A DNA stretch of 64,000 nt. Source: Acidimicrobiia bacterium (GTDB lineage Bacteria; Actinomycetota; Acidimicrobiia; Spongiisociales; ZC4RG35). This document shows, piece after piece, positions 31,373 to 56,550 of the stretch. The translations under genes were made by a program, and so were the position numbers. Where the stretch lies: contig DASZOM010000033.1 in assembly GCA_035550735.1 (NCBI GenBank), forward strand, positions 17,444 to 81,443. The letters are read 5' to 3'. The notes under the pieces were generated by a model that saw only the letters and a program-made list of their open reading frames with translations, had not been told where the DNA came from and made no database searches. Position 1 is the stretch's first letter. Each line of letters begins with the position of its first letter.

Positions 31373-31405
31373 GCGTCCGCCACCGTAAGTGGCGAGGGGC
31401 CGACA

Positions 31406-33628: not shown

Positions 33629-33657
33629 GCCCTCCCGTCCCACCATACGATCTGACG

Positions 33658-34548
33658 ATGAAGATTGGAGTCCAGCTTCCCGAGGTGGAGCGCTCCGTCA
33701 CCTGGGCGGAGGTGCGCGAGGTGGCGGTCACCGCGGAGCAGTGTGGGTTCGACTCGATCTGGGTCGGGGACCATCTGCTCTACCGGGATCGAATCGGGTC
33801 GAGCGGGCCCTGGGAGGCCTGGTCGACCCTGGCGGCCCTTGCCGAGGCCACGGAGCGGGTGGAGCTCGGGCCACTGGTGGCGGCCACCTCGTTCCACAAC
33901 CCGGCGATGATCGCCAAGAAGGCGGCGACGGTCGACGAGATAAGTGGAGGCCGGCTCGTCCTCGGTCTCGGGGCCGGGTGGAATCGGGTCGAGTACGACG
34001 CGTTCGGGTTTCCCTACGACCGGAGGGTCGACCGCTTCGCTGAGGCCTTCACCATCATCCGGACGCTGATCCGGGAGGGCTCGATCGACTTCGATGGCGA
34101 GTTCTACCGGCTGCGGGAGATGGAGCTGCTGCCGCCGGCACGACCCGGCATGAAGCTGATGATCGGCTCCAACGGGCCCCGCATGCTGCGGATCACCGCG
34201 CCGCACGTCGACATGTGGAACACCTGGCACACCTGGTTCGGCAACCGGGCCGAGGGCATGGCCCCGCTGATCGCCGGCCTGGAGGCCGCATGCGCCGAGA
34301 CCGGACGCGACCGGTCCGAGATCGAGAAGACGGCTGCGGTCTACGTCGGTCTCGCGCGGGGAGGTGGCAGGCGGGCGGGCAGCGAGGATCGGCCTGAGGT
34401 CCAGCCGATCTCGGGCAGTCCCCAGGAGATGGCGGAGTCCCTGCGCGCCTTCGCCGACGTCGGGATCGACCACATCCAGATCGTGCTCGACCCGATCGAT
34501 GCGGCCGGAGTCGAGGAACTGGCCGGGGTGATCGCCCTGATCCGATAG
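33658..34548 (+). CDS. LLM-class F420-dependent oxidoreductase (luciferase-like monooxygenase fold)
   Basis: An ATG at 33658 gives MKIGVQLPEV...WVGDHLL...GLGAGWNRVEYDAFGFPY. Track ORF 33499..34548 has a spurious N-terminus. Confidence 0.8.
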   Translation: MKIGVQLPEVERSVTWAEVREVAVTAEQCGFDSIWVGDHLLYRDRIGSSGPWEAWSTLAALAEATERVELGPLVAATSFHNPAMIAKKAATVDEISGGRLVLGLGAGWNRVEYDAFGFPYDRRVDRFAEAFTIIRTLIREGSIDFDGEFYRLREMELLPPARPGMKLMIGSNGPRMLRITAPHVDMWNTWHTWFGNRAEGMAPLIAGLEAACAETGRDRSEIEKTAAVYVGLARGGGRRAGSEDRPEVQPISGSPQEMAESLRAFADVGIDHIQIVLDPIDAAGVEELAGVIALIR

Positions 34549-34557
34549 GTTTCGGGC

Positions 34558-35190
34558 ATGGAGCTCCGATCGAACACCTTCGCCGACGGCGCCGCCATCC
34601 CGGCGAAGTGCGCCCTGGCCAAGCCCCATCCCGAGGACCGGGTGACCTTCTCCGACAACGTCAACCCCCATCTGGAATGGAGTGACGTCCCCGAGGGGAC
34701 CAAGTCGTTCGCCATCGTCGTCCACGACTACGACGTCCCCAGCGTGGGCGACGACGTCAACCAACCCGACCGGGAGGTGCCCGAGGATCTGGCACGGGTC
34801 GACTTCTTCCACTGGGTCCTCATCGACCTCCCCGCCGACAAGCGGTCGATCGAGGAAGGCGAGTTCTGCAGTGGTGTCACCGAAGGGGGTAAGGACGTGC
34901 GACGCGGCCCGCACGGGACACGCCAGGGTCTCAACGACTTCACCGGGTGGTTCGAGGGCGACCCCGTCATGGGTGGTGACTACTACGGCTACGACGGTCC
35001 CGCCCCTCCCTGGAACGACTCGATCCCCCATCACTACAGATTCACCGTCTATGCCCTCGACGTGGAGAACCTCGAGGTCGGAGACGATCCCTTCACCGGG
35101 AAGGACGTGTGGGAGGCGATCGAGGGCCATGTCCTCGCCCAGGCCTCGATCGCGGGCACATACACCCAGAATCCGAGGCTGGCGAGCTAG
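34558..35190 (+). CDS. YbhB/YbcL-family PEBP (Raf-kinase-inhibitor-like) protein
   Basis: It has the PEBP signature HWVLIDLP...HHYRFTVYALD. Confidence 0.8.
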   Translation: MELRSNTFADGAAIPAKCALAKPHPEDRVTFSDNVNPHLEWSDVPEGTKSFAIVVHDYDVPSVGDDVNQPDREVPEDLARVDFFHWVLIDLPADKRSIEEGEFCSGVTEGGKDVRRGPHGTRQGLNDFTGWFEGDPVMGGDYYGYDGPAPPWNDSIPHHYRFTVYALDVENLEVGDDPFTGKDVWEAIEGHVLAQASIAGTYTQNPRLAS

Positions 35191-36142: not shown

Positions 36143-36721
36143 TCAGCCGAGGTGTACGGGCTGGTTCCCATCCTTCCACTTGATCGAGCAGCCCATCGAG
36201 GCGTATTGCTCCTCGGACACGGCCTCGCCGGCGAGGACGGCTTCCATCGCCGCCCGCAGGTCCTGTCCCGTCACCGGGACACCGCTGTTGGGCCGGGAAT
36301 CGTCGAGCCTGCCCCGATAGACCAGGGTTCGCTCCGGCCCGAACAGGAAGAAGTCCGGCGTGCACATCGCGGTGTAGGCCGCGGCCACCGCCTGGTCCTC
36401 GTCGAACAGATAGGGGAACACGTAGCCGAACTGCTCGGCCTCGGCCTTCATCGCCTCGGGGGAGTCCTCCGGGTAGTCGGTTGGGTCGTTGGAGCTGATC
36501 GCGACGATGCCGATCCCGGAGTCCTGATAGTCCTTTCCGAGCCGGGCGAGCTCGTCCCTGACGTGCTTGACATAGGGGCAGTGATTGCAGATGAACATCA
36601 CCAGGACCCCGGTCTTGTCGTCGTAGTCGAAGAGCGAGACCGTCCTGGCGGTCACGGTGTCGGGCAATGAGAAGTCCGGCGCCTGGGTGCCCAGGGCGAG
36701 CATGGTGGATGTCGCTGGCAT
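36143..36721 (-). CDS. Thioredoxin-fold redoxin (AhpC/TSA-like thiol-disulfide oxidoreductase)
   Basis: It has a redoxin fold with a CNHCPYV (CxxC) active site. Confidence 0.7.
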   Translation of the reverse strand: MPATSTMLALGTQAPDFSLPDTVTARTVSLFDYDDKTGVLVMFICNHCPYVKHVRDELARLGKDYQDSGIGIVAISSNDPTDYPEDSPEAMKAEAEQFGYVFPYLFDEDQAVAAAYTAMCTPDFFLFGPERTLVYRGRLDDSRPNSGVPVTGQDLRAAMEAVLAGEAVSEEQYASMGCSIKWKDGNQPVHLG

Positions 36722-40869: not shown

Positions 40870-43164
40870 ATGCCAACCCGGACATCCACCCGCAAGGGCT
40901 CCGGGCGGAGACGGGTGTCCACGAAGCAGAAGACGAGGCCGAAGAGGTCTCGAAACAGATCGCTCACCGCGTCACTGGCGTCGATGCGCGCCGCGGTGAG
41001 AAACACCCTGGGGCGTCAGACCGACGACGTCTGGGGTGTGATCCTCCTCGTTCTCTCCATGCTGGTGACCCTGGCCTTCTTCGATCTCGCCGGGCCGGTG
41101 GGCGACGGGTTCGAGTCGGGATCGAGGCTCCTCTTCGGGGTATGGCGCTTCGCGGTCCCGATAGCCCTCGCCGGCATCGGCATCGGGATGATCGTGGGCA
41201 AGCCGCGTGACGGTGCCCGCAAGCTGGTCGTCGGCGGTGTGGCCACCTTCGTCGGCACACTCGCCCTCTTCCACCTTCTTACCGGAGCGGTCGCGCTCCG
41301 ACCCAGCATCGAACTGGTGCAGGAGCGGGGTGGGGCGGTCGGCTCGTTGATCGCATTCCCACTTCGCCGCATCCTCGGACACTGGGGCGCTTTCGTCGTT
41401 CTCTCCTCCTCGATAGGGATGGGAGTCCTGGTGGTGACCGGTACCTCGGTTCGGGAGCTGTTCACGGGGATCGTCGATCTCTGGCGCGGGCTTCGCAGGA
41501 TGGCGCGTGAGGTCTTTGCCGGCGATCCCGATCGACGGGGCGCACACGTCGCGCCACGGCCCGCGCCGATCGTCGAGCAGAAGCCAAGGGGCAAGCACGC
41601 CAAGCCGGACGAGCAGCGCCCGCCCAAGGACCAGCCGGCCAAGCGTGTGGTGAAGCCGCGACCGGATCCGGTCGCCGTGACCCTGGACCTGACGACCCCC
41701 GAGTACCAACTCCCTCCACTTTCCCTGCTCGACGGTGGAACCGGGGGAGAGGTGAACAAGCGGTCGTTGGAGGACACGGCACGCCAGCTCGAGGACACAC
41801 TGCTCCAGCACGGGGTCGACGCCACTTTGACCAAGATCGTCCCCGGGCCGACCGTCACCCGATACGAGATCGAGCTCGCTCCCGGGGTCAAGGTCAACAG
41901 GGTGTCCAACCTCTCCCACGACATCGCCTACGCCCTGGCCACGCCCGACGTCAGGCTCCTGGTACCCATCCCGGGGAAGTCGGCGATCGGCGTGGAGGTG
42001 CCCAATGTCAAGCGCCGCCTCGTCTCCCTCGGTGACATCCTCTCCAGCCCGGAGGCGGCCCGACCGGCGCATCCGCTCACCGTGGGCCTGGGAATGGACA
42101 TCTCAGGCCAGCCCCGGCTCCTCAACCTGGCCGAGCTGCCCCATGTCCTCATCGCCGGAGCCACCGGGGCAGGGAAGTCGTCCTGCATCAACTCGATCGT
42201 GACCTCGCTGCTGATGCGCACCCACCCCGACGACGTCCGGGTGATCATGGTCGACCCGAAACGTGTCGAGCTGGGCCAGTACAACGGGGTGCCGCATCTG
42301 CTGACACGGGTGATCACCAACCCGAAGAAGGCAAACGAGGCGCTGAAGTGGGCCGTGGCCGAGATGGACCGCCGCTACGACCTCCTCGCCGAGGCCAGGG
42401 TCCGTGACATCGAGGGCTATCGGGACAAGCTCGACGCCGGCGGTCTCGATCCCGAGGGCTTCGACCGCTTCCCCTACATCGTCGTGGTGATCGACGAGCT
42501 CAACGACCTGATGATGGTGGCGGGCAAGGAGGTCGAGGAATCGATCGTTCGCATCGCCCAGATGGCACGAGCGGTGGGCATCCACCTGGTCATCGCCACC
42601 CAGAGGCCCTCGGTGGACGTGATCACCGGCGTGATCAAGGCAAACGTGCCGAGCCGTCTCGCCTTCAGTGTCGCCTCCCAGACCGACAGCCGGGTGATAA
42701 TCGACGGCGCCGGCGCCGAGAAGCTGGTGGGCATGGGCGACATGCTGGTGGTGACCGCCAAGGAGCCGCGGCCCCAGCGGATACAGGGGGCTTGGGTGAG
42801 GGAGACCGAGGTGCATGCCGTGGTCGAGTGGGTCAGGGCGCAGAGAGAGGCCCAGTACCAGGACCAGCAGGTGCTCGAGGTCGCTGCCGCGGCGGCAGCC
42901 GCTTCCGCCGCCGCCGAGGAGGAGGACGACGTCGACACCGAGCTGGTCCGTCAGGCGATGGAGCTGGTGGTCCGGTCCCAGCTCGGCTCCACCTCGATGC
43001 TGCAGCGAAAGCTCCGAATCGGCTTCGCCCGGGCAGGCCGGGTGATGGATGCCCTGGAGCGCCAGGGCGTGGTCGGCCCTTCGCTGGGAAGCAAGGCACG
43101 GGACGTCTTGATGACCGTCGAGGAGCTCGAAGGTGTCATGGAGACGGAGTCGGCCCCGGTCTGA
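40870..43164 (+). CDS. ftsK: DNA translocase FtsK/SpoIIIE
   Basis: It has a basic N-terminus, 4 TM helices, a Pro/Lys-rich linker, an AAA+ motor domain (GATGAGKS) and a C-terminal gamma (winged-helix) domain. Confidence 0.9.
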   Translation: MPTRTSTRKGSGRRRVSTKQKTRPKRSRNRSLTASLASMRAAVRNTLGRQTDDVWGVILLVLSMLVTLAFFDLAGPVGDGFESGSRLLFGVWRFAVPIALAGIGIGMIVGKPRDGARKLVVGGVATFVGTLALFHLLTGAVALRPSIELVQERGGAVGSLIAFPLRRILGHWGAFVVLSSSIGMGVLVVTGTSVRELFTGIVDLWRGLRRMAREVFAGDPDRRGAHVAPRPAPIVEQKPRGKHAKPDEQRPPKDQPAKRVVKPRPDPVAVTLDLTTPEYQLPPLSLLDGGTGGEVNKRSLEDTARQLEDTLLQHGVDATLTKIVPGPTVTRYEIELAPGVKVNRVSNLSHDIAYALATPDVRLLVPIPGKSAIGVEVPNVKRRLVSLGDILSSPEAARPAHPLTVGLGMDISGQPRLLNLAELPHVLIAGATGAGKSSCINSIVTSLLMRTHPDDVRVIMVDPKRVELGQYNGVPHLLTRVITNPKKANEALKWAVAEMDRRYDLLAEARVRDIEGYRDKLDAGGLDPEGFDRFPYIVVVIDELNDLMMVAGKEVEESIVRIAQMARAVGIHLVIATQRPSVDVITGVIKANVPSRLAFSVASQTDSRVIIDGAGAEKLVGMGDMLVVTAKEPRPQRIQGAWVRETEVHAVVEWVRAQREAQYQDQQVLEVAAAAAAASAAAEEEDDVDTELVRQAMELVVRSQLGSTSMLQRKLRIGFARAGRVMDALERQGVVGPSLGSKARDVLMTVEELEGVMETESAPV

Positions 43165-43190
43165 TGGGCCGATTCGGAATGGTCGGCCCA
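43165..43190 (+). terminator. Stem-loop immediately after ftsK stop (putative terminator/RNA end structure)
   Basis: It is an 8-bp stem (TGGGCCGA / TCGGCCCA) with a 10-nt loop, starting 1 nt after the ftsK TGA. There is no clear U-tract. Confidence 0.3.
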
Positions 43191-43228
43191 GGTCTAAGCT
43201 CGCCCGGGTTCGTCTCTAGTTCCACGAG

Positions 43229-44374
43229 GTGTTTGGCGTGAGCTCACGCAGGTCAGGGCTTGGTCGCGGGCTCGATGCATTGATCCCCACGGCTTCGGGC
43301 GAGGCAACGCTGTCGGTGATCGGGCAGACTTCGGGTGATGATTCGATGTTCTCGCTGATCAACCCGGACGGCTCGGTCCGCGATCGCCTTCCCCTGACCC
43401 TCGACGAGATGAAGGCGCTCTATGCCGACATGGTTGAGGCGCGCACCTACGACGACAAGTCGATGGCGATGCAACGCCAGGGCCGGCTCGCCACCTACGC
43501 CCCGTTCCGGGGCCAGGAGGCGGCGCAGATCGGGGCCGCCGCCGCCCTGGCCGAGGACGATTGGGTGGCGGCCACCTACCGGGACGCCGCGCTCAACTGG
43601 CGTGCCGGCTATCCCTGGGAGCTGCTGATCCTGGGTCGCACCGGGGACGAGAGGGGTGGCCAGGTTCCGGAAGGGGTCAACATCCTCCCGCCCTCGATCA
43701 CGGTGGGCGGCCACATGATCCACGCCGTCGGTCTCTCCTGGGCCGAGAAGCTGTCAGGCTCCGACCGCATCGCCCTCACCTCCTTCGGCGATGGGGCCAC
43801 CTCCGAGGGAGATTTCCACGAGGCGATGAACTTCGCCTCCGTCTACCGGACACCGACGGTGTTCCTGTGTCAGAACAACGGCTACGCCATCTCCTACCCG
43901 ACCTCGGAACAGACCCGGTCGGACACGATCGCGGTCAAGGCGGACGCCTACGGGATGCCTGGGATCCGCGTCGACGGCAACGACGTGGTTGCCGTGCTCG
44001 TGGCGGTGCGCGAGGCGGTGTCCCTGGCGCGCGCCGGCGACGGGCCGAGTCTCATCGAGGCGGTCACCTATCGGATGGGCCCGCACACGACGGCCGACGA
44101 CCCGGACCGCTATAGGGACGGGAGCGATGTGACGGTGTGGGCGGAAAGGGATCCCCTGGAGAGAGTGCGCCTCCTCCTCGAGCGTCAGGGCGCCTGGGAC
44201 GAGGATTGGCAGACCGAGCTGGAGTCTGAGGCGTCGGAGACCATCGAGGCCGCGGTTGCCTGGGCCGAGTCGGTGCCTCCTCCGACCTTCGCCGAGATGC
44301 TCAACCGGGTCTACGCCCAACCCAGCCCCGCGTTGCGGGAGCACCTGGAGACGGGAGAGCCGAGTCAGATGTGA
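43229..44374 (+). CDS. pdhA: 2-oxoacid (pyruvate/branched-chain) dehydrogenase E1 component alpha subunit, with in-frame ParB-like N-terminal peptide
   Basis: The TPP-dependent E1 alpha core starts around MFSLINPDGS (ATG 43346). The ORF is open from GTG 43229/43238. It encodes SSRRSGLGRGLDALIPTASGEA, which matches actinobacterial ParB N-termini. Confidence 0.85.
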   Translation: MFGVSSRRSGLGRGLDALIPTASGEATLSVIGQTSGDDSMFSLINPDGSVRDRLPLTLDEMKALYADMVEARTYDDKSMAMQRQGRLATYAPFRGQEAAQIGAAAALAEDDWVAATYRDAALNWRAGYPWELLILGRTGDERGGQVPEGVNILPPSITVGGHMIHAVGLSWAEKLSGSDRIALTSFGDGATSEGDFHEAMNFASVYRTPTVFLCQNNGYAISYPTSEQTRSDTIAVKADAYGMPGIRVDGNDVVAVLVAVREAVSLARAGDGPSLIEAVTYRMGPHTTADDPDRYRDGSDVTVWAERDPLERVRLLLERQGAWDEDWQTELESEASETIEAAVAWAESVPPPTFAEMLNRVYAQPSPALREHLETGEPSQM

Positions 44375-44424
44375 GCAGATGTTGACCTACAGCGTCCAAA
44401 TTTGCACAAACCTCGGGGATCGGC

Positions 44425-45402
44425 ATGCCTGAGGTAAACCTCGCCCAGGCGATCAACGGGGCGTTGGACACCGCGTTGCGCAACGACCCGCGCGTGGTCC
44501 TGCTCGGCGAGGACATCGGTCGGGCCGGTGGTGTCTTCCGCATCACCGACGGGCTCAGGGCGAGTCACGGGCCCGATCGAGTCTTCGACACCCCGGTCGC
44601 CGAGTCCGGCATCGTCGGCGCAGCCTTCGGGATGGCGGTCGCAGGGATGCATCCGATAGCCGAGCTGCAGTTCCTCGGCTTCTCCTATCCCGCCTACGAC
44701 CAGATCATCAATCACGTCGCCCGGATCAGGAACCGCACCAACCACCGCTTCAGCGCGCCGATGGTCATCCGGATCCCCTACGGAGGGGGGATCGGGGCGG
44801 CGGAGCATCATTCCGAGTCGACCGAGGCGATATATGCCCACATCCCCGGGATCAAGGTCGTGGTCCCCTCCACGCCCGCGGATGCCCGGGGCCTGCTGCT
44901 CGCCGCCGTGGAGGACCCCGACCCGGTGATCTTCCTGGAGCCGATTCGCCTCTACCGCGCCATCAGGGAAGACGTGCCCGAAGCAGTCGATCGGGTGGAG
45001 ATCGGGCCGGTTCGCGTGGAGAGGTCTGGAGACGACATCACCCTGATCAGCTGGGGGGCGATGATGAAAGAGACTCGTGCCGCGGCCGGCGCCTTGGCCG
45101 AGGACGGCTACTCGGTCGAGGTGATAGACGTGCGGACCCTGGCCCCCCTCGATCGTGACGGGATCGTGGCGTCGGTGGAGAAGACTGGGCGGGCGGTGAT
45201 CATCCACGAGGCACCGCTCACCGGTGGGTTCGGGGGCGAGATCGCCGCGACCATCACCGAGCGAGCGCTCTACTCGCTGCTCGCACCGATCAAGCGGGTC
45301 ACCGGGTGGGACACGGTCTTCCCGTTGAAGCGCTCCGAGGCCCACTACCTTCCCTCGGTGGACCGAATCGTCTCTGCTGCGCACGAGACCCTGGAGGTTT
45401 GA
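44425..45402 (+). CDS. pdhB: 2-oxoacid dehydrogenase E1 component beta subunit
   Basis: It has a transketolase-like pyrimidine-binding domain and C-terminal domain. Confidence 0.9.
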   Translation: MPEVNLAQAINGALDTALRNDPRVVLLGEDIGRAGGVFRITDGLRASHGPDRVFDTPVAESGIVGAAFGMAVAGMHPIAELQFLGFSYPAYDQIINHVARIRNRTNHRFSAPMVIRIPYGGGIGAAEHHSESTEAIYAHIPGIKVVVPSTPADARGLLLAAVEDPDPVIFLEPIRLYRAIREDVPEAVDRVEIGPVRVERSGDDITLISWGAMMKETRAAAGALAEDGYSVEVIDVRTLAPLDRDGIVASVEKTGRAVIIHEAPLTGGFGGEIAATITERALYSLLAPIKRVTGWDTVFPLKRSEAHYLPSVDRIVSAAHETLEV

Positions 45403-46713
45403 GTGACCCGCGAGTTCCGGCTTCCCGACATCGGTGAGGGCCTCACCGAAGCCGAGATCGTTCGCTGGCTGGTCCCGGTCGGAGAGCGGGTGGAGACGGA
45501 CCAGCCCATCGTCGAGGTGGAGACGGACAAGGCCGTGGTCGAGATCCCGTCTCCGTTCGCAGGGATCGTCCTGTCCCATGGTGGCGCCGAGGGCGAGATC
45601 GTCCGGGTCGGTCAGGTGCTGGTCACCATCGGGGACGAAGGAGAGCGACCGACACCGCCACCCGAGCCGTCCCCGGTCGCCGTCTCCCAGCGGGAAGCCC
45701 CCCCGATCGTCGGCACCCTCAGTGACGAGGCGGAAGTCCTCACCCCGGGCGTCAGCGATGTCCCGTCGAGCCCGGTCGTCCAGGCGCTTCCCCTGGTGCG
45801 CAAGCTGGCGCGTGATCACGACATCGATCTGAGCACGATCGCGGGAACAGGTCCCGGCGGTCGGATCACCCGTGAGGACGTGGAGGCTGCGATCGAGGCG
45901 GCTTCGGGCCGGCCCCACCGGGAGGAGGCGGTGGAGGGGATGCCGGTCGGCGCCGGTCACGGTGTCGGCGACGACCTGGAGGAGCCGGAGACCGTGCCAT
46001 CAGCGACGACCACACCGGTCGGCGGCAAGCGGGAGGAGGAGCGCCGCCCGATGAGCCGTCTCCGCCGCACGATCGCTGCGAACATGGTGAAGAGCTGGTC
46101 GGAGATCCCCCACGTCACCAGTTTCGACGAGGTCGACGCCACCCGTCTCCTCGAGGTGCGCCGGGCTCTCGGCGACCGCCACGGGCTGAGCATCCCGGTC
46201 GAGGCGCTGGTCATCAAGGCGGTGATCCCGGCAATCGACGAGTTCCCGGAGCTCAACGCGACGGTCGACGGGGACGATCTCGTCCTCCACGGGGCCCGCG
46301 ACATCGGAATCGCCGTGGACACCCCGGAGGGTCTCCTGGTGGCGGTGGTCAGGGAGGCCGGTTCGAAGAGTGTGCTCGAGCTTGCCTCCGAGATCCGACG
46401 TCTCGGTGAAGGAGCCCGGGAGCGCAGCCTCGGTCCCGATGAGCTCACCGGCCAGACCTTCACCGTCACCAACATAGGGGCCGTGGGGGGCGGACACGGG
46501 ACACCCATCGTCCCCCACGGGACGACGGCCATCCTCTCGGTGGGTCGCGCCCGGTTGCGCCCGGTCGTGTTCGGAGAGGATCTCGGCATCGCCCCGGTGA
46601 TGCCGCTGTCGCTGTCTTACGACCATCGGGTGATCGACGGGGCGGTGGGTAGGCGGTTCATGGCGCTGGTGATCGAGAACCTCGATGAGCCGGCTCTCTT
46701 CCTGGCGGTGTGA
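45403..46713 (+). CDS. pdhC: Dihydrolipoamide acyltransferase E2 (lipoyl domain + E3-binding domain + catalytic domain)
   Basis: It has a lipoyl-Lys motif (ETDKA), a PSBD (PLVRKLARDHDIDL), and a catalytic DHRVIDG motif. Confidence 0.9.
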   Translation: MTREFRLPDIGEGLTEAEIVRWLVPVGERVETDQPIVEVETDKAVVEIPSPFAGIVLSHGGAEGEIVRVGQVLVTIGDEGERPTPPPEPSPVAVSQREAPPIVGTLSDEAEVLTPGVSDVPSSPVVQALPLVRKLARDHDIDLSTIAGTGPGGRITREDVEAAIEAASGRPHREEAVEGMPVGAGHGVGDDLEEPETVPSATTTPVGGKREEERRPMSRLRRTIAANMVKSWSEIPHVTSFDEVDATRLLEVRRALGDRHGLSIPVEALVIKAVIPAIDEFPELNATVDGDDLVLHGARDIGIAVDTPEGLLVAVVREAGSKSVLELASEIRRLGEGARERSLGPDELTGQTFTVTNIGAVGGGHGTPIVPHGTTAILSVGRARLRPVVFGEDLGIAPVMPLSLSYDHRVIDGAVGRRFMALVIENLDEPALFLAV

Positions 46714-47279
46714 TGCCACACGTCCACGTCGTCCCCTACGACGAGTCGGCGGGAGTGGTCCGTGAGGAGTACGACGCCGCCATCGCCCGCGCCGGCCGCA
46801 TCTGGAACATCGTCTCGATCCAGAGCATGCAGCCTGAGGTGCTGCGGGACTCGATGCGGATCTACCGCACGATCATGCACGGGCCTTCTCCGCTGAGCCG
46901 AGCGCAACGGGAGATGATGGCCGTCATCACCTCCCAGGCCAACGACTGTCACTACTGAATAGCTGCGCATCTGCACGACCTCCGTGCCGAGGTTGCCGAC
47001 GGGACCATCGCAGATCGCATCGCGGAGGATTGGCGCACCGCAGGGCTGTCACCCGTGGACCTCGCACTCTGTGAGTATGCCGAGACGCTGACCCGGTCCC
47101 CTTCATCGGTGGACGCCACCGTCATCGAGGGCCTCCGCGCCGTCGGTCTCGACGACGTGGGGATCTCCAGCGCCACTCAGGTGATCGCCTACTTCAACTA
47201 CATCAACCGGATCGCCGAGGGGCTCGGTGTGCCCATGGAGAGCTGGCTCCATGACGACGGGACGCCCCGGGAGCCCTAG
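46710..47279 (+). CDS. AhpD-core/CMD-family peroxidase-related protein with in-frame TGA in the CxxC motif (selenocysteine candidate; otherwise pseudogene)
   Basis: The GTG/ATG start overlaps the E2 stop (GTGATG). The frame reads ...SQANDCHY-TGA(46956-46958)-IAAHLHDLRAEV... and continues open to TAG at 47279 (189 codons). The TGA sits where AhpD-like proteins have the second Cys of N.C.YC...H. Confidence 0.5.
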
Positions 47280-47288
47280 CCTGCCCCC

Positions 47289-48782
47289 ATGGCCAAGGAC
47301 CCCGAGAAGCAGGCAGGCAAGAAGAAGGACAAGGCCAAGCCCAAGGCCGAGATGCCCGAGGTGAAGGATCGCAAGGCGTCGAGACAGTTCACCGGGAAGT
47401 TCGGCCGCAAACAGGTCTCCTACACCGCCACGGCCGCCACACAGGTCTTCGACGTAGGTGACGACAAGGTCTCGTTCTTCTACGTCTCCTACACCCAGGA
47501 CGACGCAGATCCGGCGTCTCGTCCGGTGATGTTCTGCTTCAACGGAGGCCCGGGCTCGTCGACCGTGTGGCTCAACCTCGGCTTGTTCGGCCCGAAGCGG
47601 ATGATGTTCGACGATCAAGGATTCAAGGTCGGGATGCAGGGGAAACTGGTCGACAACGACCAGTCGATCCTCGATGTCTCCGATGTGGTCTGCATCGACG
47701 CCATGGGGACGGGGCTGAGCCGGACTGCCAAGAAGGGCAAGGAGAAGAGGTTCCACCACTTCAAGAAGGACATCGAGGCCTTCAGCGAGTTCATCGTCCA
47801 CTACCTCAACCGCAACGGACGATGGTCGTCTCCCAAGTACCTGGCCGGTGAGAGCTACGGGACCCTGCGCGGAGCGGGGATAGCCCGGGAGCTGTTCGAC
47901 AAGCACCACGTCGAGCTGAACGGGGTCATCTTCATCTCGATGATCCTCAACTACCAGACCTCTGCGATCGACCGGACCAACATGCTGGTCCACGCCGGGA
48001 ACGACCTCCCGTTCGCCGTCTACCTGCCCACGTACGCCGCCACGGCCTGGTATCACAAGCGTCTCCCCAAGAAGAACCAGTCGAAGTCACTGCGAGCCTT
48101 TCTCGACGAGGTCGAGGAGTTCGCGCTGGGGGGCTATTGGACCGCACTCGCCCAGGGAGACCGGCTCGACGCCAAGCAGAGGGCTGCCATCGCCGGCAAG
48201 CTCGCCGATTACACCGGTCTCAGCGCCGAGTTCATCGACCTCTACAACCTGCGCATCCACATCATGAGGTTCTGCAAGGAGCTGATGCGGGAGAAGCGGC
48301 GCACGGTGGGGAGGATCGACTCGCGTTACCTCGGCATCGACCGGGACATGGCCGGCAACAACCTCGAGATCGACCCGAGCACCGACGCCTTCTCCGGGGT
48401 GGCGGCCTCGGCGCTCAACCACTACCTGCGTGACGAGATCGGGTTCGAGACCGAGGACGTCTACAACATCATGTCGTCGGACGTCTGGAAGAACTGGGAC
48501 TACGAGGATTTCAAGGGCCGGTACGTCGACACGTCGGAGAACTTCCGGGAGCTGTTGTCGAGGTCGAGGGGGACCAAGGTGCTCATCGCCAACGGCTACT
48601 ACGACCTGGCCACGCCGCACTTCGCCACCGAGTACACCATGTCCCACATGGGCCTCGACCCCGACGTGCGACCCAACATCCGGCTCACCTACTACGAAGC
48701 GGGGCACATGATGTACGTGCACAAGGCATCGCGGGAGCAGCTGGCCACCGACCTCAGGGAGTTCGTCCAGCAGACCTCTTAG
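47289..48782 (+). CDS. S10-family serine carboxypeptidase-like protein with Lys-rich N-terminus
   Basis: It has GGPGSSTVW and the GESYG nucleophile motif of the S10 family. The N-terminal 50 aa are K/E-rich low complexity. Confidence 0.7.
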   Translation: MAKDPEKQAGKKKDKAKPKAEMPEVKDRKASRQFTGKFGRKQVSYTATAATQVFDVGDDKVSFFYVSYTQDDADPASRPVMFCFNGGPGSSTVWLNLGLFGPKRMMFDDQGFKVGMQGKLVDNDQSILDVSDVVCIDAMGTGLSRTAKKGKEKRFHHFKKDIEAFSEFIVHYLNRNGRWSSPKYLAGESYGTLRGAGIARELFDKHHVELNGVIFISMILNYQTSAIDRTNMLVHAGNDLPFAVYLPTYAATAWYHKRLPKKNQSKSLRAFLDEVEEFALGGYWTALAQGDRLDAKQRAAIAGKLADYTGLSAEFIDLYNLRIHIMRFCKELMREKRRTVGRIDSRYLGIDRDMAGNNLEIDPSTDAFSGVAASALNHYLRDEIGFETEDVYNIMSSDVWKNWDYEDFKGRYVDTSENFRELLSRSRGTKVLIANGYYDLATPHFATEYTMSHMGLDPDVRPNIRLTYYEAGHMMYVHKASREQLATDLREFVQQTS

Positions 48783-48819
48783 CCAGGAGGGCTCCACACC
48801 CCTGTCGTGCCTCCGGTGA

Positions 48820-48848
48820 TTGACACACCAGCGTGATGGTCGCATAAT
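48820..48848 (+). promoter_or_regulatory. Sigma-A-like promoter TTGACA-17nt-CATAAT upstream of ABC-2 exporter operon
   Basis: TTGACA is at 48820-48825, followed by a 17-nt spacer and CATAAT at 48843-48848. AAGGAGG SD is at 48866-48872 and the ATG is at 48878. Confidence 0.5.
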
Positions 48849-48865
48849 TCAACAAGCGTTGAATT
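48846..48865 (+). promoter_or_regulatory. Perfect palindrome AATTCAAC-aagc-GTTGAATT overlapping -10/+1 (candidate TetR operator)
   Basis: It has 8-bp perfect inverted arms with a 4-nt spacer between the -10 hexamer and the SD. A TetR-family gene closes the same operon (51536..52135). Confidence 0.45.
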
Positions 48866-48877
48866 AAGGAGGCGACC

Positions 48878-49906
48878 ATGCTGGCGATGACCCTCAAGGA
48901 GTTCCGGCAGGTGGTGCGGGACCATCGCACGCTGGCCATGCTGATCGTGATGCCGGTGGTGCTCCTGCTCGTGTTCGGATACGCCGCCAGCTTCGACGTG
49001 GACGTGATCCCCACGGCTGTGGTTGGCCCGGGGGCGACGAACGTGCCGGAGCAGTTGCCCGAGCTCTTCGACGTGGAGACGGCGGATGCCGACGCGACCA
49101 GAGCCAATGCCGAGGAGATGCTGCGGGCCGGGGAGGTGAACCTCGCCGTGGTCACCGGCGACGGGCCACCGGTCGTCCTCCTTGACGGCTCCGAGCTGTT
49201 CATGGCCAGAGCCGCCGTGCAGATCCTGGCCGCGGCACCCATACCCGGTCTCGACTACGTGGTTCTCTTCAATCCCGAGCTCGACACGTCGGCGGTGCTG
49301 GTCCCCGGTCTCGCCGGTCTGATCATCGTGTTCGTGGGCACACTCGTCACCTCGATGTCGGTGGTGCGGGAGCGGGAGACCGGGACCTTGGAGCAGCTCG
49401 CGGTCATGCCGTTCCGGCCCCGGGACGTGTTCATGGGCAAGATCGCCCCCTACTTCCTGATCGCGTCGATCGACATCGTGATCGTGCTCACCATCGGGAC
49501 CTTGCTCTTCGATGTGCCCCTCAACGGTTCCGTGCTGCCCCTGATCGTGGGGGCCCTCGCCTTTCTCTTCGTCGCCCTCGGGGTCGGGGTCCTGATCTCG
49601 TCGGTGTCGGAGAACCAAGCCCAGGCGATCCAGCTGGCATTGATGACGGCCCTGCCCCAGATCATGCTCTCCGGGATCATCTTCCCGCTCTCCTCCATGG
49701 CGCCGGCGGTGCGCTGGATCGGTTACCTGCTGCCTCTCACCTATTTCAACCAAGTAGCCAAGGGGGTGATGCTGCGTGGGGCCGGTCTCGGCGATCTGCT
49801 CATGCCGCTCGCCCTGCTCGTTGCTCTCGGTGCGGTGATCTTCACCCTCGCCGTGACCAGGTTTCGCAGCCAGCTTCGCCCGGCCAGGGTGCGGGCGGCG
49901 ACGTGA
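48878..49906 (+). CDS. ABC-2 type transporter permease
   Basis: It has the ABC-2 family signature with six TM helices in the C-terminal half. Confidence 0.8.
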   Translation: MLAMTLKEFRQVVRDHRTLAMLIVMPVVLLLVFGYAASFDVDVIPTAVVGPGATNVPEQLPELFDVETADADATRANAEEMLRAGEVNLAVVTGDGPPVVLLDGSELFMARAAVQILAAAPIPGLDYVVLFNPELDTSAVLVPGLAGLIIVFVGTLVTSMSVVRERETGTLEQLAVMPFRPRDVFMGKIAPYFLIASIDIVIVLTIGTLLFDVPLNGSVLPLIVGALAFLFVALGVGVLISSVSENQAQAIQLALMTALPQIMLSGIIFPLSSMAPAVRWIGYLLPLTYFNQVAKGVMLRGAGLGDLLMPLALLVALGAVIFTLAVTRFRSQLRPARVRAAT

Positions 49907-52151: not shown

Positions 52152-53618
52152 CTACTGGGCCGTGGAACCCAAGGAACGCGAATGGGCCTCCACGACCGAG
52201 AGCACCTCGGGAAGGTCCATCTCCGGATACGGGTCGGGGGTGATCAGGCCGAGGATGCGGTCCTGGGCCCGGGCGGACACGATCACCTGGTTGGCCCAGC
52301 GTTCGGCGAGATCGGGCGGGGGGAGTCGGCAACAGGTCGGGTCAGGGCACGTCGACGACTCCCGGTTCGGGGTGTCCCGGCCCCGGAACCAGCGGGCCTC
52401 GTCGAAGCGGGTGCCGAGGGTGACGGCGAAGGCGGGATCCCTCCCGGCCTCCACATGGGTGGTGCAGAAGTAGGTCCCGGCCGGGGTGTCGGTGTACTGG
52501 AGGTGGGTGCCGAACCTGTCCTCGGAGTCGAAGGTGATGCGGGCGCCCCAGCGACGGCACAAGCGCTGGGTCTCCATCCCGCCGTGCTCGTCACGGGGGA
52601 CGGGCACGCCGTCGTTCGCATAGCCCTTGACCACGACACCCATCCAGTCCGAGACCAAGAGATGGCAAGCGATCCCGAGGTGTCGGGTGATCAGGTTGGC
52701 GGTGCGCCATGCAGCCATCTCGTACGACACGTAGAACAGCTCCTTGACATCCTCCACGTCGATGTCGTGGCTCTCCTTGGCGGTGAGCAGACGCGCCACG
52801 ACGGCGTGCTCCGGGGCGAGCACGGCGGCGGCGAAGTAGGCCGTCTCCATCCTCTGACGGAGGAAGGTGGCCAGGTCGGGCTCTGCCTCGTGGCCGAGGA
52901 TGAATCCGGCGAGGGTCTGCAACACTGCCTTTCGGGCCTGGCGGGTGCGCAGCTCGTTGCGCTGAGCGATGTAGATGCGACGGTTGCGGGTGTCGATGAT
53001 CGAGCGGGCGAAGGCCGGCATGTCCTCGATGGAGATCAGCTCGAAGCCGTTGCTCGCGGTGAGGTCGATCAGGTTCCTCGATGAGAACGGCCCCTCACCG
53101 GCGTATCCGGATGCCTCCAATGCCTCGTGTGCGGCCACCTCGATGTCCTTGAGATAGCCGTTGCGATCGGCCAGATAGGCGTGGAGCTCACCGTTGGCCC
53201 GCCTCACCTCGTCCGAGCCTGCGGAGCCGAGACCCGACTTCTCGCGGATCACTTCGTGGAGGCCGACGATGTGCTCGAGGGTGATGCTGTCGACCCGAGC
53301 AGAGGGCTTGACGGCGGGTATGCCGAGGCTCTGGAAGAGGGCGCTCTCCTGGGAGCGGGTGAGGGCGATCTCCAGCTCGTCCCGGCGGGTGGGTGGCGTG
53401 GGATCGAGCAGATCCGACAGCTCGACGCCAAGGACTCGGGCGATCTCCATGACCAGGTTGAGCCTGGGCTCCTTCCGCCCGTTCTCGAGGAGGGAGAGAA
53501 ACGGCGCCGGCTTGCCCACCTGCTCGCCAAGCCGATCCAGGGTGAGACCGGCCCGGTTGCGGAAGTGTCGGACCCGACGCCCCAGTACCAGGGGATCCAG
53601 GGCTTGCGCTTCGCTCAT
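52152..53618 (-). CDS. ramB: RamB-type regulator (XRE-HTH + DUF2083/ImmA-like domain; short-chain fatty acyl-CoA regulator family)
   Basis: It has an N-terminal XRE HTH (LGRRVRHFRNRAGLTLDRLGEQVG) and a long C-terminal domain. Its length (488 aa) and its position divergent from aceB-aceA match actinobacterial RamB. Confidence 0.7.
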   Translation of the reverse strand: MSEAQALDPLVLGRRVRHFRNRAGLTLDRLGEQVGKPAPFLSLLENGRKEPRLNLVMEIARVLGVELSDLLDPTPPTRRDELEIALTRSQESALFQSLGIPAVKPSARVDSITLEHIVGLHEVIREKSGLGSAGSDEVRRANGELHAYLADRNGYLKDIEVAAHEALEASGYAGEGPFSSRNLIDLTASNGFELISIEDMPAFARSIIDTRNRRIYIAQRNELRTRQARKAVLQTLAGFILGHEAEPDLATFLRQRMETAYFAAAVLAPEHAVVARLLTAKESHDIDVEDVKELFYVSYEMAAWRTANLITRHLGIACHLLVSDWMGVVVKGYANDGVPVPRDEHGGMETQRLCRRWGARITFDSEDRFGTHLQYTDTPAGTYFCTTHVEAGRDPAFAVTLGTRFDEARWFRGRDTPNRESSTCPDPTCCRLPPPDLAERWANQVIVSARAQDRILGLITPDPYPEMDLPEVLSVVEAHSRSLGSTAQ

Positions 53619-53655
53619 TCTCCTCCTCGTCGAAAGATGCTCCGATCTTATTCGA

Positions 53656-53684
53656 TGTTTGCCCTGAGATCCAGCAGGGAAACA
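53656..53684 (+). promoter_or_regulatory. Imperfect inverted repeat TGTTTgCCCTG-N8-CAGGGAAACA in ramB/aceB divergent intergenic region
   Basis: It has 10/11-bp arms. It is located 17 nt upstream of the aceB ATG and 38 nt from the ramB start. Confidence 0.3.
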
Positions 53685-53700
53685 AAGAGAATACGTTCTT

Positions 53701-55263
53701 ATGCAGTTTCAAGTCGAGCAGTCGGAGATCGAGCGAAGCATCCTCACCGGGGACGCCGTCGCATTCCTGATCGACCTGGAGAATGTCTTCGGCTGGAGAC
53801 GGGGCCAGATCCTGGAGCGTCGACAGAACCGCCAGCGCCGGCTCGACAGTGGAGAGCGTCCGCGGTTCCTGGAGGCCACATCGGGCATTCGGGACGCCGA
53901 CTGGACGGTGGCCCCCGGTCACCCCGATCTCGAGGACCGTCGGGTGGAGATCACCGGCCCGGTCGACCGCAAGATGATGATCAACGCCCTCAACTCGGGG
54001 GCCAAGGTGTTCATGGCCGACTTCGAGGACGCCACCACCCCAACCTGGGAGAACCTGCTCCACGGGCACCAGAACATCGTGGATGCCTATGAGCGGACCC
54101 TCGAGTTCGACAGCGGCGACAAGCAGTACCGCCTCGGCGACCAGATAGCCACGCTGGTGGTCCGGCCGCGGGGCTGGCATCTCACCGAGAAGCACTTCCT
54201 CGTCGACGGGCGGCCGATCTCGGCCTCCCTCTTCGACTTCGGTCTCTATCTCTTCCACGGCGGGCGTGCCGCCCTCGAAAACGGGACCGCCCCATTCCTC
54301 TATCTGCCCAAGATGGAGTCCCATCTCGAGGCGAGGCTGTGGAACGACGTCTTCGTCTGGGCCCAGGACCGCCTCGACATGGAGCAGGGGACGATCAAGG
54401 CGACCGTCCTGATCGAGAACATCCTCGCCGCATTCGAGATGGACGAGATCCTCTACGAGCTGAGAGATCATGCCGCCGGGCTCAACGCCGGCCGCTGGGA
54501 CTACATCTTCAGCGTCATCAAGAAGTTCCGCAACGACCCCCGGTTCGTGCTCCCCGACCGGGCCCAGGTGACGATGACCGTGCCGTTCATGCGGGCCTAC
54601 ACCGACCTGCTGGTGAAGACGTGCCACCGCCGGGGTGCCCACGCCATCGGGGGCATGGCCGCCTTCATCCCCAACCGACGGGACGCCGAGGTGACCGAAA
54701 ACGCCCTCGCCGCCGTCGCAGCCGACAAGAAGCGGGAGGCCGAAGCCGGGTTCGACGGAACCTGGGTGGCCCATCCCGACCTGGTCCCGGTGGCCGGCGA
54801 GCGCTTCGCTGCCGTCCTCGGGGCCCGACCGAACCAGTTGGAGAATCGACGCGACGATGTAGCCGTCGGCCCCGAAGACCTGCTCGACCTCGACTTCCCC
54901 GGTGAGGTCACCCTGGACGGGTTGGAGACCAACGTCTCGGTCGGGATCCGCTATCTGACCTCGTGGCTCTCGGGCATGGGTGCGGCAGCCATCGACGACC
55001 TCATGGAGGACGTTGCCACCGCCGAGATCTGCAGGTCACAGATCTGGCAATGGGCTCGTCACCGAGTCGCCACCTCCGACGGCACAGAGGTGACCGAGTC
55101 GCTGGTCCGATCCACGGCCGACCGGGTCGTCGCCGAACTCGAGGGCGAAGGCGATGCCGACCCGAACCTGCTGCACGCCGCCCGGAAAGTCTTCGAGGAG
55201 GTCGCCCTGTCGGACGACTTCGTCGACTTCCTGACCCTGCCCGCCTACGAGCTGATCGACTGA
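53701..55263 (+). CDS. aceB: Malate synthase A
   Basis: The 520-aa protein has the malate synthase A family pattern throughout. Confidence 0.9.
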
Positions 55264-55272
55264 GGAGATCCG

Positions 55273-56550
55273 ATGGAGCACATCCGCCAAGAGGCCGCCC
55301 GTCTCGCCGACGAGTGGAACAACGACTCGAGATGGGCCGGCATCGTCCGTGATTACACGGCCGAGGACGTGGTGCGTCTCCGGGGGAGCATCCGCGAGCA
55401 GCACACACTGGCCTACAGGATGTCCCAGAAGCTCTGGGAGCTGCTGCAGAGCGAGGACTATGTCAGCGCACTCGGTGCTCTCAGCGGAGGCCAGGCGGTG
55501 CAGATGGTCAAGGCCGGTCTCAAGTCGATCTATCTCTCCGGGTGGCAGGTGGCCGGTGACGGCAACCTCGCGGGTGAGGTGTACCCCGACCAGTCGCTGT
55601 ACCCGGCGAACTCGGCCCCGGCCCTGGTGGCACGGATCAACAACGCGTTCCGGCGGGCCGACCAGGTTCATTGGGCCGAGGGGGACACCGAGATCGATTG
55701 GTTCGCCCCGATCATCGCCGACGGTGAGGCCGGTTTCGGTGGGGCGCTGAACGTCTTCGAGCTGACCAAGAGCTTCATCCAGGCCGGCGCCGCCGGAGTC
55801 CATTACGAAGATCAGCTCGCCGCCGAGAAGAAGTGCGGCCACATGGGGGGCAAGGTCCTGGTTCCCACCAGCCAGCACGTGCGCACCCTGCTCGCCGCCA
55901 GACTCGCCGCCGACGTGGCCGGCGTGCCCACGATCATCGTGGCCCGCACCGACGCCAACTCGGCGACACTGCTCACCTCCGACATCGACCCCCGGGACCG
56001 GGAATTCGTCGTCGGGGAGAGGACCCCGGAAGGGTTCCACCAGGTGAGGGGCGGGCTCGAGTCGGCCATCGCCCGCGGGCTGGCCTACGCACCCTATTGC
56101 GACCTGATCTGGTGCGAGACGGCGACCCCCGATCTCGATGAGGCGAGGCAGTTCGCCGACGCGATCCACGCCGAGTACCCGGAGAAGATGCTCGCCTACA
56201 ACTGCTCGCCTTCCTTCAACTGGGGCAAGCATCTCGATGGCGACACCATCGCCCGGTTCCAAAAGGAGCTGGGAGTCCTCGGATATCGCTACCAGTTCAT
56301 CACCCTCGCCGGGTTCCATGCCCTCAATGCATCGATGTTCTCCCTCGCCAAGGGATACGCCGAGCGGGGAATGAGCGCCTATGTCGAGCTCCAGGACGAG
56401 GAGTTCGCCATGGAGGGCGACGGTTACACCGCCACCCGACATCAGCGTGAGGTGGGCGCCGGCTACTTCGACCTGGTGAGCCAGGCGGTCAGCGGCGGGG
56501 AGTCGTCGACCCTCTCCCTGCGCGGCTCCACCGAAGAGACCCAGTTCTAG
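55273..56550 (+). CDS. aceA: Isocitrate lyase
   Basis: It has the KKCGHMGGK catalytic motif. The length is 425 aa. Confidence 0.9.

Follow-up and report, generated by a model that had tools for sequence, protein, structure and literature searches.

An intact AhpD-like gene with a putative selenocysteine codon

The window analysed here, a 64,000-nucleotide stretch of an Acidimicrobiia bacterium, very probably encodes an intact AhpD-like protein of 188 residues in which UGA at codon 82 is decoded as selenocysteine, with a hairpin bearing bacterial SECIS features a short distance downstream. An initial annotation had proposed a selenocysteine (Sec) codon at the redox-active Cys of an AhpD-core protein, and this proposal is supported by conservation of the TGA, selection on the codons around it, the hairpin, agreement among six assemblies, the presence of selA and selB in relatives, and the literature. 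The gene is, as far as sequence comparison can tell, almost certainly functional and not broken. Coordinates of the gene, its elements and its neighbours are collected in Table 1.

Table 1. Features of the AhpD-like selenoprotein locus and its surroundings in the window
Feature	Position	Strand	Description and basis
E1 alpha of PDH-type 2-oxoacid dehydrogenase	43229-44374	+	Pfam; TIGR03181 (PDH E1 alpha) 426.4, cut-off 411.35
E1 beta of PDH-type 2-oxoacid dehydrogenase	44425-45402	+	Pfam; same-strand cluster with E1 alpha (43229..45402)
Dihydrolipoyl acyltransferase (E2)	45403..46713	+	Lipoyl, E3-binding and catalytic domains; Pfam, NCBIfam, junction comparison; stop overlaps selenoprotein start as TGATG
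Alternative GTG start of AhpD-like gene	46710	+	
AhpD-like (TIGR01926) selenoprotein gene (predicted)	46713..47279	+	188 codons including Sec82; translation, TIGR01926, Pfam CMD, MPH start kept in relatives
Active-site motif C79-H-Y-U82-I-A-A-H86 (CxxUxxxH)	46947..46970	+	Aligns to CxxCxxxH of 2oyo and 6k40; homologue alignment
UGA, putative selenocysteine codon 82	46956..46958	+	TGA in 83 of 84 related loci, TGC in 1; same in six independent assemblies
bSECIS-like hairpin	46976..46995	+	5' arm CGACCUC 46976-46982, loop CGUGCC 46983-46988, 3' arm GAGGUUG 46989-46995
S10-like serine carboxypeptidase homologue	47289..48782	+	Pfam, synteny; 9 nt downstream of AhpD-like gene

Translation of the AhpD-like frame yields ...AVITSQANDCHY, the TGA, and then IAAHLHDLRAEV..., continuing to a TAG stop at 47277-47279 with no second in-frame TGA between 46713 and 47279 on the plus strand. 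The frame had been described as open past the TGA, with 189 codons counted from the GTG, and translation bears this out; counted from the ATG, there are 188. The reported overlap of GTG and ATG with the end of the E2 gene is likewise real, the E2 stop being the TGA at 46711-46713. In relatives the junction reads CTGATG, or the ATG stands apart, 2-3 nt past the E2 stop, and there is no GTG; the conserved start is therefore the ATG (MPHVHV...).

By profile matches, the product of 46713-47279 is a member of the AhpD-like or "peroxidase-related enzyme" family (TIGR01926, COG2128), with the AhpD/CMD fold. With U replaced by C, the protein scored 137.7 bits against TIGR01926 (cut-off 81.8) over residues 3-175 of 188; Pfam detected a CMD domain, and the AhpD core domain model TIGR00778 gave 42.8 bits against 27.8. 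The canonical AhpD model TIGR00777 returned 16 bits against a cut-off of 191.95, which places the protein outside that family, sharing the AhpD core domain only. The match to NF041238, an AhpD-related CFYUT (seleno)protein, reached 56.3 bits and fell short of the equivalog cut-off of 175. The motif reads N-D-C-H-Y-U-I-A-A-H, with Cys79 encoded at 46947-46949 and His86 at 46968-46970; translation and homologue alignment agree with the earlier reading, in which TGA takes the place of the second Cys codon in the CMD/AhpD-core motif C-x-x-C-x-x-x-H.

The solved structures nearest to the window protein are AhpD-like proteins, namely Deinococcus DR1765 (PDB 6k40) and 2oyo. They belong to the same fold family, align over ~160 residues (E = 5e-26 and 1e-25) and place their CxxCxxxH motif (NRCLYCAVSH) on C79, U82 and H86. 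Unlike the window protein, they carry Cys in place of Sec and have no counterpart of HDLRAEV, the segment whose codons form the hairpin, and overall similarity is modest. Loss of DR1765 sensitises cells to H2O2 (PMC8945050).

The initial annotation named AhpD-like proteins as a reported bacterial selenoprotein family, and the literature agrees. The family was predicted in 2005 from Sargasso Sea data (PMC1088965), and ranked as the fourth most abundant selenoprotein family, "AhpD-like 1", in the GOS survey (PMC2398784); a 2026 review (PMC13188914) includes it under the entry "AhpD-like, TIGR01926, CxxU". The window protein shares with it a TIGR01926 score above cut-off, a CxxU motif with Sec at the second Cys position, a SECIS-like hairpin with an apical-loop G, and the existence of Cys homologues. 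Nothing in kind sets it apart: the window copy differs in its host, an uncultured member of the Acidimicrobiia, and in a start that overlaps the stop of PDH E2, a context of which we found no mention in the literature consulted. The window gene is thus an ordinary instance of a bacterial selenoprotein family that ranks among the most abundant known; the family itself is not new, and general knowledge of selenoproteins is unchanged by it.

Conservation of the TGA codon and of the frame beyond it

Among 84 related loci, TGA occupies the Sec82 column in 83 and TGC in one. These loci span at least ten phylum- or class-level lineages, including Acidimicrobiia, Thermoleophilia/Gaiellales, Acidobacteriota, Chloroflexota, Latescibacterota, Planctomycetota, Gemmatimonadota, Marinimicrobia and others, and conservation of TGA at this column is, judged from the alignment, far beyond chance. 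The same column holds Cys in other homologues (P0003-P0013, P0035, P0040 and others), and TGC was confirmed there in the DNA of L019 and L084-L086. Conservation also extends in frame past the TGA: dN/dS is 0.13-0.44 after the codon, compared with 0.15-0.32 before it, indicating purifying selection, and 106 downstream codons are preserved.

These comparisons bear directly on the view that a TGC- or TGT-to-TGA mutation inactivated a Cys-type AhpD-like gene. The TGA is indeed one base away from a Cys codon, and gene callers split the gene into pieces of 81 and 74 aa, as they might a pseudogene. A decayed gene is at odds, however, with a TGA shared by 83 of 84 loci in many phyla, with purifying selection and preserved length downstream of the codon, and with a conserved SECIS-like hairpin. 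We regard a nonsense-mutated pseudogene as extremely unlikely, the comparative data having effectively refuted it.

An error of sequencing or assembly at the TGA is still less credible, to a degree that makes it negligible. Six JGI metagenome assemblies of this population, built independently from different samples, all carry the TGA, in a gene that is either identical or differs at 1 of 567 nt. The population is represented by JGI samples 3300049578, 3300049582, 3300049741, 3300049742, 3300049822 and 3300049824. Nothing specific speaks for an error; in other species, two Logan contigs have AGA or CGA at the Sec82 column, which may be real variants or errors.

Could the two sides of the TGA be separate proteins, an N-terminal one of 81 aa and a C-terminal one with a start of its own? 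In other species, many database entries start with M or V right past the Sec82 column, as such a split would have it. In the window, by contrast, the codon directly after the TGA is ATA, and no in-frame ATG, GTG or TTG follows for 33 codons, the next start being the GTG at 47055. This start-free stretch is conserved and includes the catalytic His86, and the break would fall inside the CxxCxxxH motif. A split gene is therefore very unlikely, and we return to a single AhpD-like frame with Sec at codon 82 as the preferred reading.

Standard gene callers turn the AhpD-like gene into two hypothetical ORFs or apply the wrong genetic code to it, which leaves soil and aquatic Acidimicrobiia under-annotated in their selenoproteome and antioxidant capacity. 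Databases hold dozens of artefactual fragments of 104-110 aa that begin directly after the Sec82 column. A crude GC3-based scan of the window for further genes with an in-frame TGA was uninformative: its hits were for the most part gene junctions or noise out of frame, and with the thresholds used it passed over the TGA of the AhpD-like gene.

A conserved hairpin with bacterial SECIS features

The predicted hairpin downstream of the UGA consists of a 7-bp stem and a C-G-[G/U]-G-N-N loop, starts 17 nt past the UGA, and encodes H-D-L-R-A-E-V. Over the 83 TGA-bearing loci the element is near-invariant (UGA-N17-CGACCUC-CGKGNN-GAGGUCG). Across relatives, 97.6% of the alignment cells in the stem are paired, versus 21-51% in slid controls, and compensatory changes occur at two pairs. 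RNAalifold adds the pair 21-40. A covariance model built from the comparative set found a single match in the window, at 56.7 bits. Codon usage in the element is restricted as well: 73 of 75 sequences use CUC for Leu, the third base of the Arg codon is only G or U, and the GC-rich stem codons are retained even in AT-rich Actinomarina. In some relatives, the hairpin has a GGUC tetraloop.

Published criteria for bacterial SECIS elements describe an apical loop of 3-9 nt on an upper stem of 4-16 bp, a G in the first two loop positions that is usually followed by G or U, a distance of 16-37 nt from UGA to apical loop, and a minimum free energy of -7.5 kcal/mol or lower (PMC13188914). Run against this model, the window hairpin agrees on four counts of four. 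Its loop has 6 nt and its stem 7 bp. All 75 sequences have G at loop position 2; at position 3, 42 have G and 33 have U, and neither A nor C occurs. The window has G-U at the two positions. UGA and apical loop are 24 nt apart (46959-46982), as they are in each of the 75 ungapped sequences, and the 24-nt element of the window folds at -9.5 kcal/mol, where Sec forms average -10.2.

The extended imperfect hairpin of the initial annotation held up in part: its inner CCUC...GAGG stem lies within the conserved 7-bp hairpin, and its outer arms AUCUGC (46969-46974) and GCAGAU (47010-47015), present in the window, are not conserved. Because relatives are without them, we ruled out these outer arms as part of the SECIS-like element. 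Window-only folding did not reveal the element, which emerged only by comparative analysis; 85-nt and 50-nt window folds after the UGA were no more stable than shuffled sequences (z = 0.59 and 0.29). An Rfam search of the window found no bacterial SECIS or other match at the gathering threshold, and a permissive search gave chance snoRNA matches only.

Close Cys-form relatives keep 6-7 of the 7 pairs, so the HDLRxEV peptide, rather than a function of the RNA, accounts for some of the conservation. Compared with the bSECISearch consensus model, whose archetype is the E. coli fdhF SECIS, the window hairpin is alike in being a coding-region stem-loop just 3' of the UGA with G[G/U] opening a small apical loop, and in having spacing and stability within the published ranges. 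It differs in consisting of a short 7-bp upper stem only, with no conserved lower stem, and in being unusually invariant across phyla, which the conserved peptide partly explains. The 83 TGA-bearing loci offer a very clean case of a SECIS element inside a conserved peptide, and the covariance model derived from them could serve for re-annotation of the AhpD-like family.

Selenocysteine machinery in relatives

In four Actinomycetota loci (L047, L063, L071 and L081), selA and selB lie 2-4 kb from the AhpD-like orthologue. NCBIfam models verified both genes beside the orthologue in L081 and L047 (selA 513 bits against 268; selB 351-357 bits against 242), and tblastn detected the same pair in L063 and L071. 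Within the class of the window's host, a preprint gives selA, selB, selC and selD for all 84 complete Actinomarina genomes, and the Actinomarina loci compared here carry the TGA form.

No selA, selB, selC or selD was found within the 64-kb window, and ARAGORN scans of the window and of 60 locus flanks gave no tRNA-Sec. A tblastn search with an approximate E. coli SelD query found nothing in the window or the flanks, a weak negative since the query sequence was unverified. A verified SelB query, run for the syntenic Acidimicrobiia clade, matched only in Gaiellales/Thermoleophilia relatives, including the L081 contig (476,585 bp).

The selA/selB pairs beside the orthologue also argue against a UGA that is read in the absence of Sec machinery, be it by a reassigned code (Trp or Gly) or by near-cognate suppression (Trp or Cys). 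Such decoding might seem to be indicated by database proteins with W at the Sec82 column, but the DNA there has TGA and the W stems from gene callers switching to code 4. Moreover, 28 of 47 ORFs in the window end in TGA, which is therefore a normal stop there, and the site is the redox Cys of CxxC, where the only recurring alternative residue is Cys. Decoding of this UGA as an amino acid other than Sec is accordingly very improbable, and insertion of Sec remains the favoured reading.

Genomic context and a possible link to lipoyl-E2

The coupling of the AhpD-like gene to E2 noted in the initial annotation proved to be a real overlap, and junction and synteny comparison shows it to be conserved only within one Acidimicrobiia clade. 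There, E2 adjacency or overlap is kept in 14 loci (13 GTDB species genomes, L004-L019, plus L084); it is missing in all other phyla among the compared loci. L008, on the 2.07-Mb contig CAVVSY010000004.1, shares the synteny, and the Cys form L084 lies on contig_11550. The same clade also holds Cys-form orthologues, including some in the same syntenic slot that lack the first Cys (TxxC; L019, L084, P0005-P0013). Clustering of neighbours found no partner gene that is kept across phyla. The window has no E3, and no peroxiredoxin adjoins the AhpD-like gene, the only copy in the window being on the minus strand at 36143-36721, 10 kb away.

In M. tuberculosis, electrons pass from NADH via Lpd, DlaT (E2) and AhpD to AhpC (PMC12028322). 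M. tuberculosis AhpD is, like the window protein, a CMD/AhpD-core CxxC-type redox protein, and the window gene overlaps one for a lipoyl-bearing E2, the type of electron donor used in M. tuberculosis. By contrast, the window protein is no orthologue (TIGR00777 gives 16 bits, where the cut-off is 192), the M. tuberculosis protein relies on Cys, and its gene adjoins ahpC and not E2, while the window gene has neither a peroxiredoxin nor an E3 beside it.

By analogy with known systems, the hairpin would bring SelB, loaded with Sec-tRNA(Sec), to a ribosome that has stalled at the UGA. Following the mechanism of the AhpD family, Sec82 would stand in for the nucleophile of the CxxCxxxH redox centre, its second Cys. 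It would attack a peroxide, or a partner protein in oxidised form, for instance a peroxiredoxin, whereupon Cys79 would form a selenenylsulfide. In the Acidimicrobiia clade, gene order hints that the co-expressed PDH E2 might use its dihydrolipoyl arm to reduce the oxidised centre again, a more tentative step that would parallel the mycobacterial chain from NADH through Lpd, DlaT and AhpD to AhpC.

Since the E2 overlap is confined to one clade, and that clade also has Cys forms, electron supply from lipoyl-E2 is plausible by analogy, as a hypothesis and not as a property of the family. A stronger version, in which the Acidimicrobiia selenoprotein is a dedicated partner of PDH E2, made in step with it via the TGATG overlap and re-reduced directly by its dihydrolipoyl arm, strikes us as rather unlikely; if true, central metabolism would have attached to it a reductase of peroxides or disulfides that depends on selenium and is driven by lipoamide. 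The TxxC Cys forms would be in keeping with a mechanism that uses a single nucleophile and leaves it to the dithiol lipoamide itself to resolve the mixed selenenyl/sulfenyl intermediate. The overlap with PDH E2, specific to this clade, offers a testable hint to the physiological reductant of TIGR01926 proteins.

The S10-like serine carboxypeptidase homologue downstream belongs to the conserved syntenic block, from which we draw no functional link. In one Latescibacterota locus, E1 alpha and beta lie downstream of the AhpD-like gene.

Conservation of the in-frame TGA

The TGA within the AhpD-like gene is very probably a genuine Sec codon. The selenoprotein interpretation of the initial annotation is borne out by TGA in 83 of 84 sequences, selection downstream of it, a hairpin that agrees with the bacterial SECIS model and six concordant assemblies. 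Its description of the sequence also holds: the E2 stop is overlapped by a GTG and an ATG, and the frame that follows runs to a TAG with the TGA (...SQANDCHY-TGA-IAAHLHDLRAEV...) as its sole internal stop. In relatives there is no GTG, and the AhpD-like protein starts with MPH from an ATG either overlapping the E2 stop (TGATG) or 2-3 nt beyond it; the ATG is therefore the likely start here. Counted from this codon, the motif is Cys79-His-Tyr-Sec82-Ile-Ala-Ala-His86.

Coordinates of features in the window
Feature	Position	Strand	Remark
E2 gene	45403-46713	+	stop TGA 46711-46713
GTG overlapping E2 stop	46710	+	
AhpD-like gene	46713-47279	+	likely start ATG 46713; stop TAG 47277-47279
In-frame TGA	46956-46958	+	codon 82
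bSECIS-like hairpin	46976-46982 paired with 46989-46995; loop 46983-46988	+	75-sequence alignment
Next in-frame ATG/GTG/TTG after TGA	47055	+	33 codons on
Sigma-70-like promoter match	48820-48848	+	11/12 positions
AhpC/TSA-family peroxiredoxin gene	36143-36721	-	10 kb upstream of AhpD-like gene
Lipoate/octanoyl-protein ligase homologue	9170-9952	-	37 kb upstream
HTH regulator to isocitrate lyase	52152-56550		
Malate synthase gene	53701-55263		
Isocitrate lyase gene	55273-56550		
High-GC3 ORF, 694 aa	27576-29660	-	
Smaller ORF	6296-6904	-	
Smaller ORF	10024-10782	+	

Sequencing error at the TGA was rejected, since the same codon occurs in six separate JGI samples. The E1 beta and malate synthase genes of the window were found on contigs of at least six such samples (L087-L092), with 99.8% identity to the window. 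All six carry TGA at codon 82 of an AhpD-like gene that is identical or differs by one base, and gene callers split it into ORFs of 81 and 74 aa.

With C in place of U, the protein matched Pfam CMD and NCBIfam TIGR01926 "peroxidase-related enzyme" (137.7 bits, cut-off 81.8), and stayed below threshold for the canonical AhpD model TIGR00777 (16 bits vs 192) and the CFYUT (seleno)protein model NF041238 (56 bits vs 175). The closest solved structures are the AhpD-like 2oyo and 6k40 (DR1765 of Deinococcus radiodurans), whose CxxCxxxH aligns to C79, U82 and H86. A 2005 analysis of Sargasso Sea data predicted AhpD-like (COG2128, CxxU) as a new selenoprotein family, giving 27 sequences and a figure of the SECIS (PMC1088965). 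In the GOS data it ranks fourth in abundance among selenoprotein families, with 299 Sec and 902 Cys forms (PMC2398784). The window gene shows all sequence-level features of this family and is a further member of an already known one, whose presence in such genomes specialists would expect; only its overlap with the PDH E2 gene, within one Acidimicrobiia clade, is mildly new.

Among 5.8 billion proteins searched, the matches were of three kinds: full-length homologues that have Cys at the TGA column, full-length homologues that have "W" there, and dozens of 104-110 aa fragments that begin exactly after the column, together with N-terminal fragments ending ...NDCHY. Trp occurs at the Sec column in P0001, P0002, P0014, P0016-P0026 and other public "full-length" proteins. 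Since the DNA of one "W" entry reads TGA (L001:329-331), the Trp is artefactual and arises when gene callers change to genetic code 4, and the Trp forms and fragments together are a systematic annotation artefact. In the source genome TGA is a normal stop, because it ends 28 of the 47 high-GC3 ORFs in the window.

A scan with each GTDB species represented by one genome found 80 loci, the closest from Acidimicrobiia (78% identity) and others from Thermoleophilia/Gaiellaceae, Ca. Actinomarina, Acidobacteriota/Bryobacterales, Chloroflexota, Latescibacterota, Planctomycetota, Gemmatimonadales, Neomarinimicrobiota and further groups. Adding the window and L001-L003 makes 84 sequences, of which 83 carry TGA at the column; L019 alone has TGC. 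This sample comprises the highest-scoring hits of a Sec-rich query alignment and is biased as an estimate for the whole family. The alignment proposed in the initial annotation yields both Sec and Cys at this position. Two homologues carry Arg codons, AGA or CGA, each one base from TGA (L093:4001-4582, P0015; L094:601-1164, P0011), and both retain a perfect GACCUCCGGGCNGAGGUC hairpin; the Arg codons may stem from very recent Sec-to-Arg mutations or from errors in single-run Logan assemblies.

The initial annotation had named loss of in-frame conservation past the TGA as evidence against Sec. Against 13 relatives, dN/dS was 0.13-0.44 downstream and 0.15-0.32 upstream of the TGA, with dS near or above saturation, and the 106 codons from TGA to stop are kept exactly in most of them. 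Re-initiation after the TGA was rejected as the cause of this conservation, because a conserved stretch bearing the motif His precedes the first possible start.

A SECIS-like hairpin downstream of the TGA

Across 75 sequences, non-redundant and free of gaps, columns 21-27 and 34-40 downstream of the UGA pair as a hairpin. Its six core pairs are paired in 97.6% of cells; sliding the 3′ partners lowers this to 21-51%. Double-sided C-G to U-A changes occur in six sequences at one pair and in one at another, and none of 500 shuffles reached the observed covariation score. RNAalifold added a seventh pair (C-G in 48 sequences, U-G in 15, U-A in 8). Synonymous choice in the hairpin is restricted: Leu is CUC in 73/75 sequences, Glu is GAG in 74/75 with a compensating change for the single GAA, and Arg codons end exclusively in G or U. 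AT-rich Actinomarina keep the GC-rich stem codons, with GGUC as the loop. The initial annotation had called for comparison with the bacterial SECIS model, and every listed value of the window hairpin, spacing from the UGA included, lies within it.

Bacterial SECIS model (PMC13188914) and the window hairpin
Property	Model	Window
Apical loop	3-9 nt	6 nt
Upper stem	4-16 bp	7 bp
Loop sequence	G in first two positions, then G or U	C-G-U
UGA-to-loop spacing	16-37 nt	24 nt
MFE	-7.5 kcal/mol or lower	-9.5 kcal/mol

From the alignment a covariance model was made, which matched the window once (56.7 bits; next best 10.3); with it, four Cys-form loci scored 13-42 bits. The window fold by itself was not significantly more stable than shuffled sequence, and the outer AUCUGC/GCAGAU arms proposed initially proved specific to the window, being absent from relatives. 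Close Cys forms keep 6-7 of the 7 pairs, so the conserved HDLRxEV peptide accounts for part of the hairpin conservation.

Genomic context and Sec machinery

Thirteen GTDB species genomes (L004-L019) and L084 share the conserved block FtsK-E1 alpha-E1 beta-E2-AhpD-like-S10 peptidase, in most cases with an overlap or a 2-3 nt gap at the E2/AhpD-like junction; in some the block continues through the HTH regulator and malate synthase as far as isocitrate lyase. E1 alpha scores above the cut-off of the PDH equivalog model TIGR03181. Cys-form orthologues also lie within the E2-linked block (L019:10001-10549; L084:6001-6570). An S-T-R-Y-C motif in L019, L084 and P0005-P0013 has Thr for the first Cys of CxxC, leaving one redox Cys; two other Cys forms, L085 and L086, keep CxxC. 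Among the loci compared, E2 adjacency was absent outside the one Acidimicrobiia clade, and no neighbour gene was conserved across phyla. In a Latescibacterota locus (L054:10694-13408), a Sec AhpD-like gene is directly followed by E1 alpha, E1 beta and a short-chain dehydrogenase (SDR), without E2, a second, independent tie to a 2-oxoacid or acetoin dehydrogenase.

Within 43000-49200, no terminator-like site was found, and the sole sigma-70-like promoter match lies between the S10 peptidase and ABC-2 transporter genes. Its location after the peptidase gene suggests that the PDH, AhpD-like and peptidase genes are transcribed as a unit of their own, apart from the transporter.

In Mycobacterium tuberculosis, electrons pass from NADH through Lpd, DlaT and AhpD to AhpC (PMC12028322). 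Given this flow from DlaT to AhpD, and from clade-specific gene order alone, a lipoyl-E2 electron donor is a reasonable hypothesis for the window clade. That the product is a lipoyl-E2-coupled selenoreductase seems unlikely. Potential, non-adjacent pathway partners in the window are an AhpC/TSA-family peroxiredoxin and a lipoate/octanoyl-protein ligase homologue, neither of which reached an NCBIfam cut-off.

The 64-kb window contains no tRNA, no Rfam match and no selA, selB or selD. Relatives offer indirect support for such machinery: four Actinomycetota loci (L047, L063, L071, L081) have selA and selB within 2-4 kb of their orthologue with the TGA, and both genes were verified in L081 and L047 (selA 513 bits, cut-off 268; selB 351-357 bits, cut-off 242). 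These pairs, in Gaiellaceae, Thermoleophilia and Actinomycetes MAGs, are on the strand opposite the AhpD-like gene (L047:5709-8608 (-); L081:11807-15255 (-)), which suggests that the selenoprotein gene is linked to Sec machinery in these lineages. All 84 complete genomes of Actinomarina, placed in class Acidimicrobiia by GTDB, are reported to have selA, selB, selC and selD (2026 preprint), and all seven Actinomarina loci compared carry the TGA form.

Elsewhere in the window, neither the 694-aa high-GC3 ORF nor several smaller ORFs, the two tabulated among them, had a Pfam match at E <= 1e-5, and a quick gene pick found no high-GC3 ORF of at least 90 aa in 20627-22391, 22978-24332, 29660-31406 or 33628-34558. 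A 488-aa HTH regulator lies next to the malate synthase and isocitrate lyase genes in divergent orientation, and relatives such as L084 show this glyoxylate-shunt module in synteny with the PDH block.
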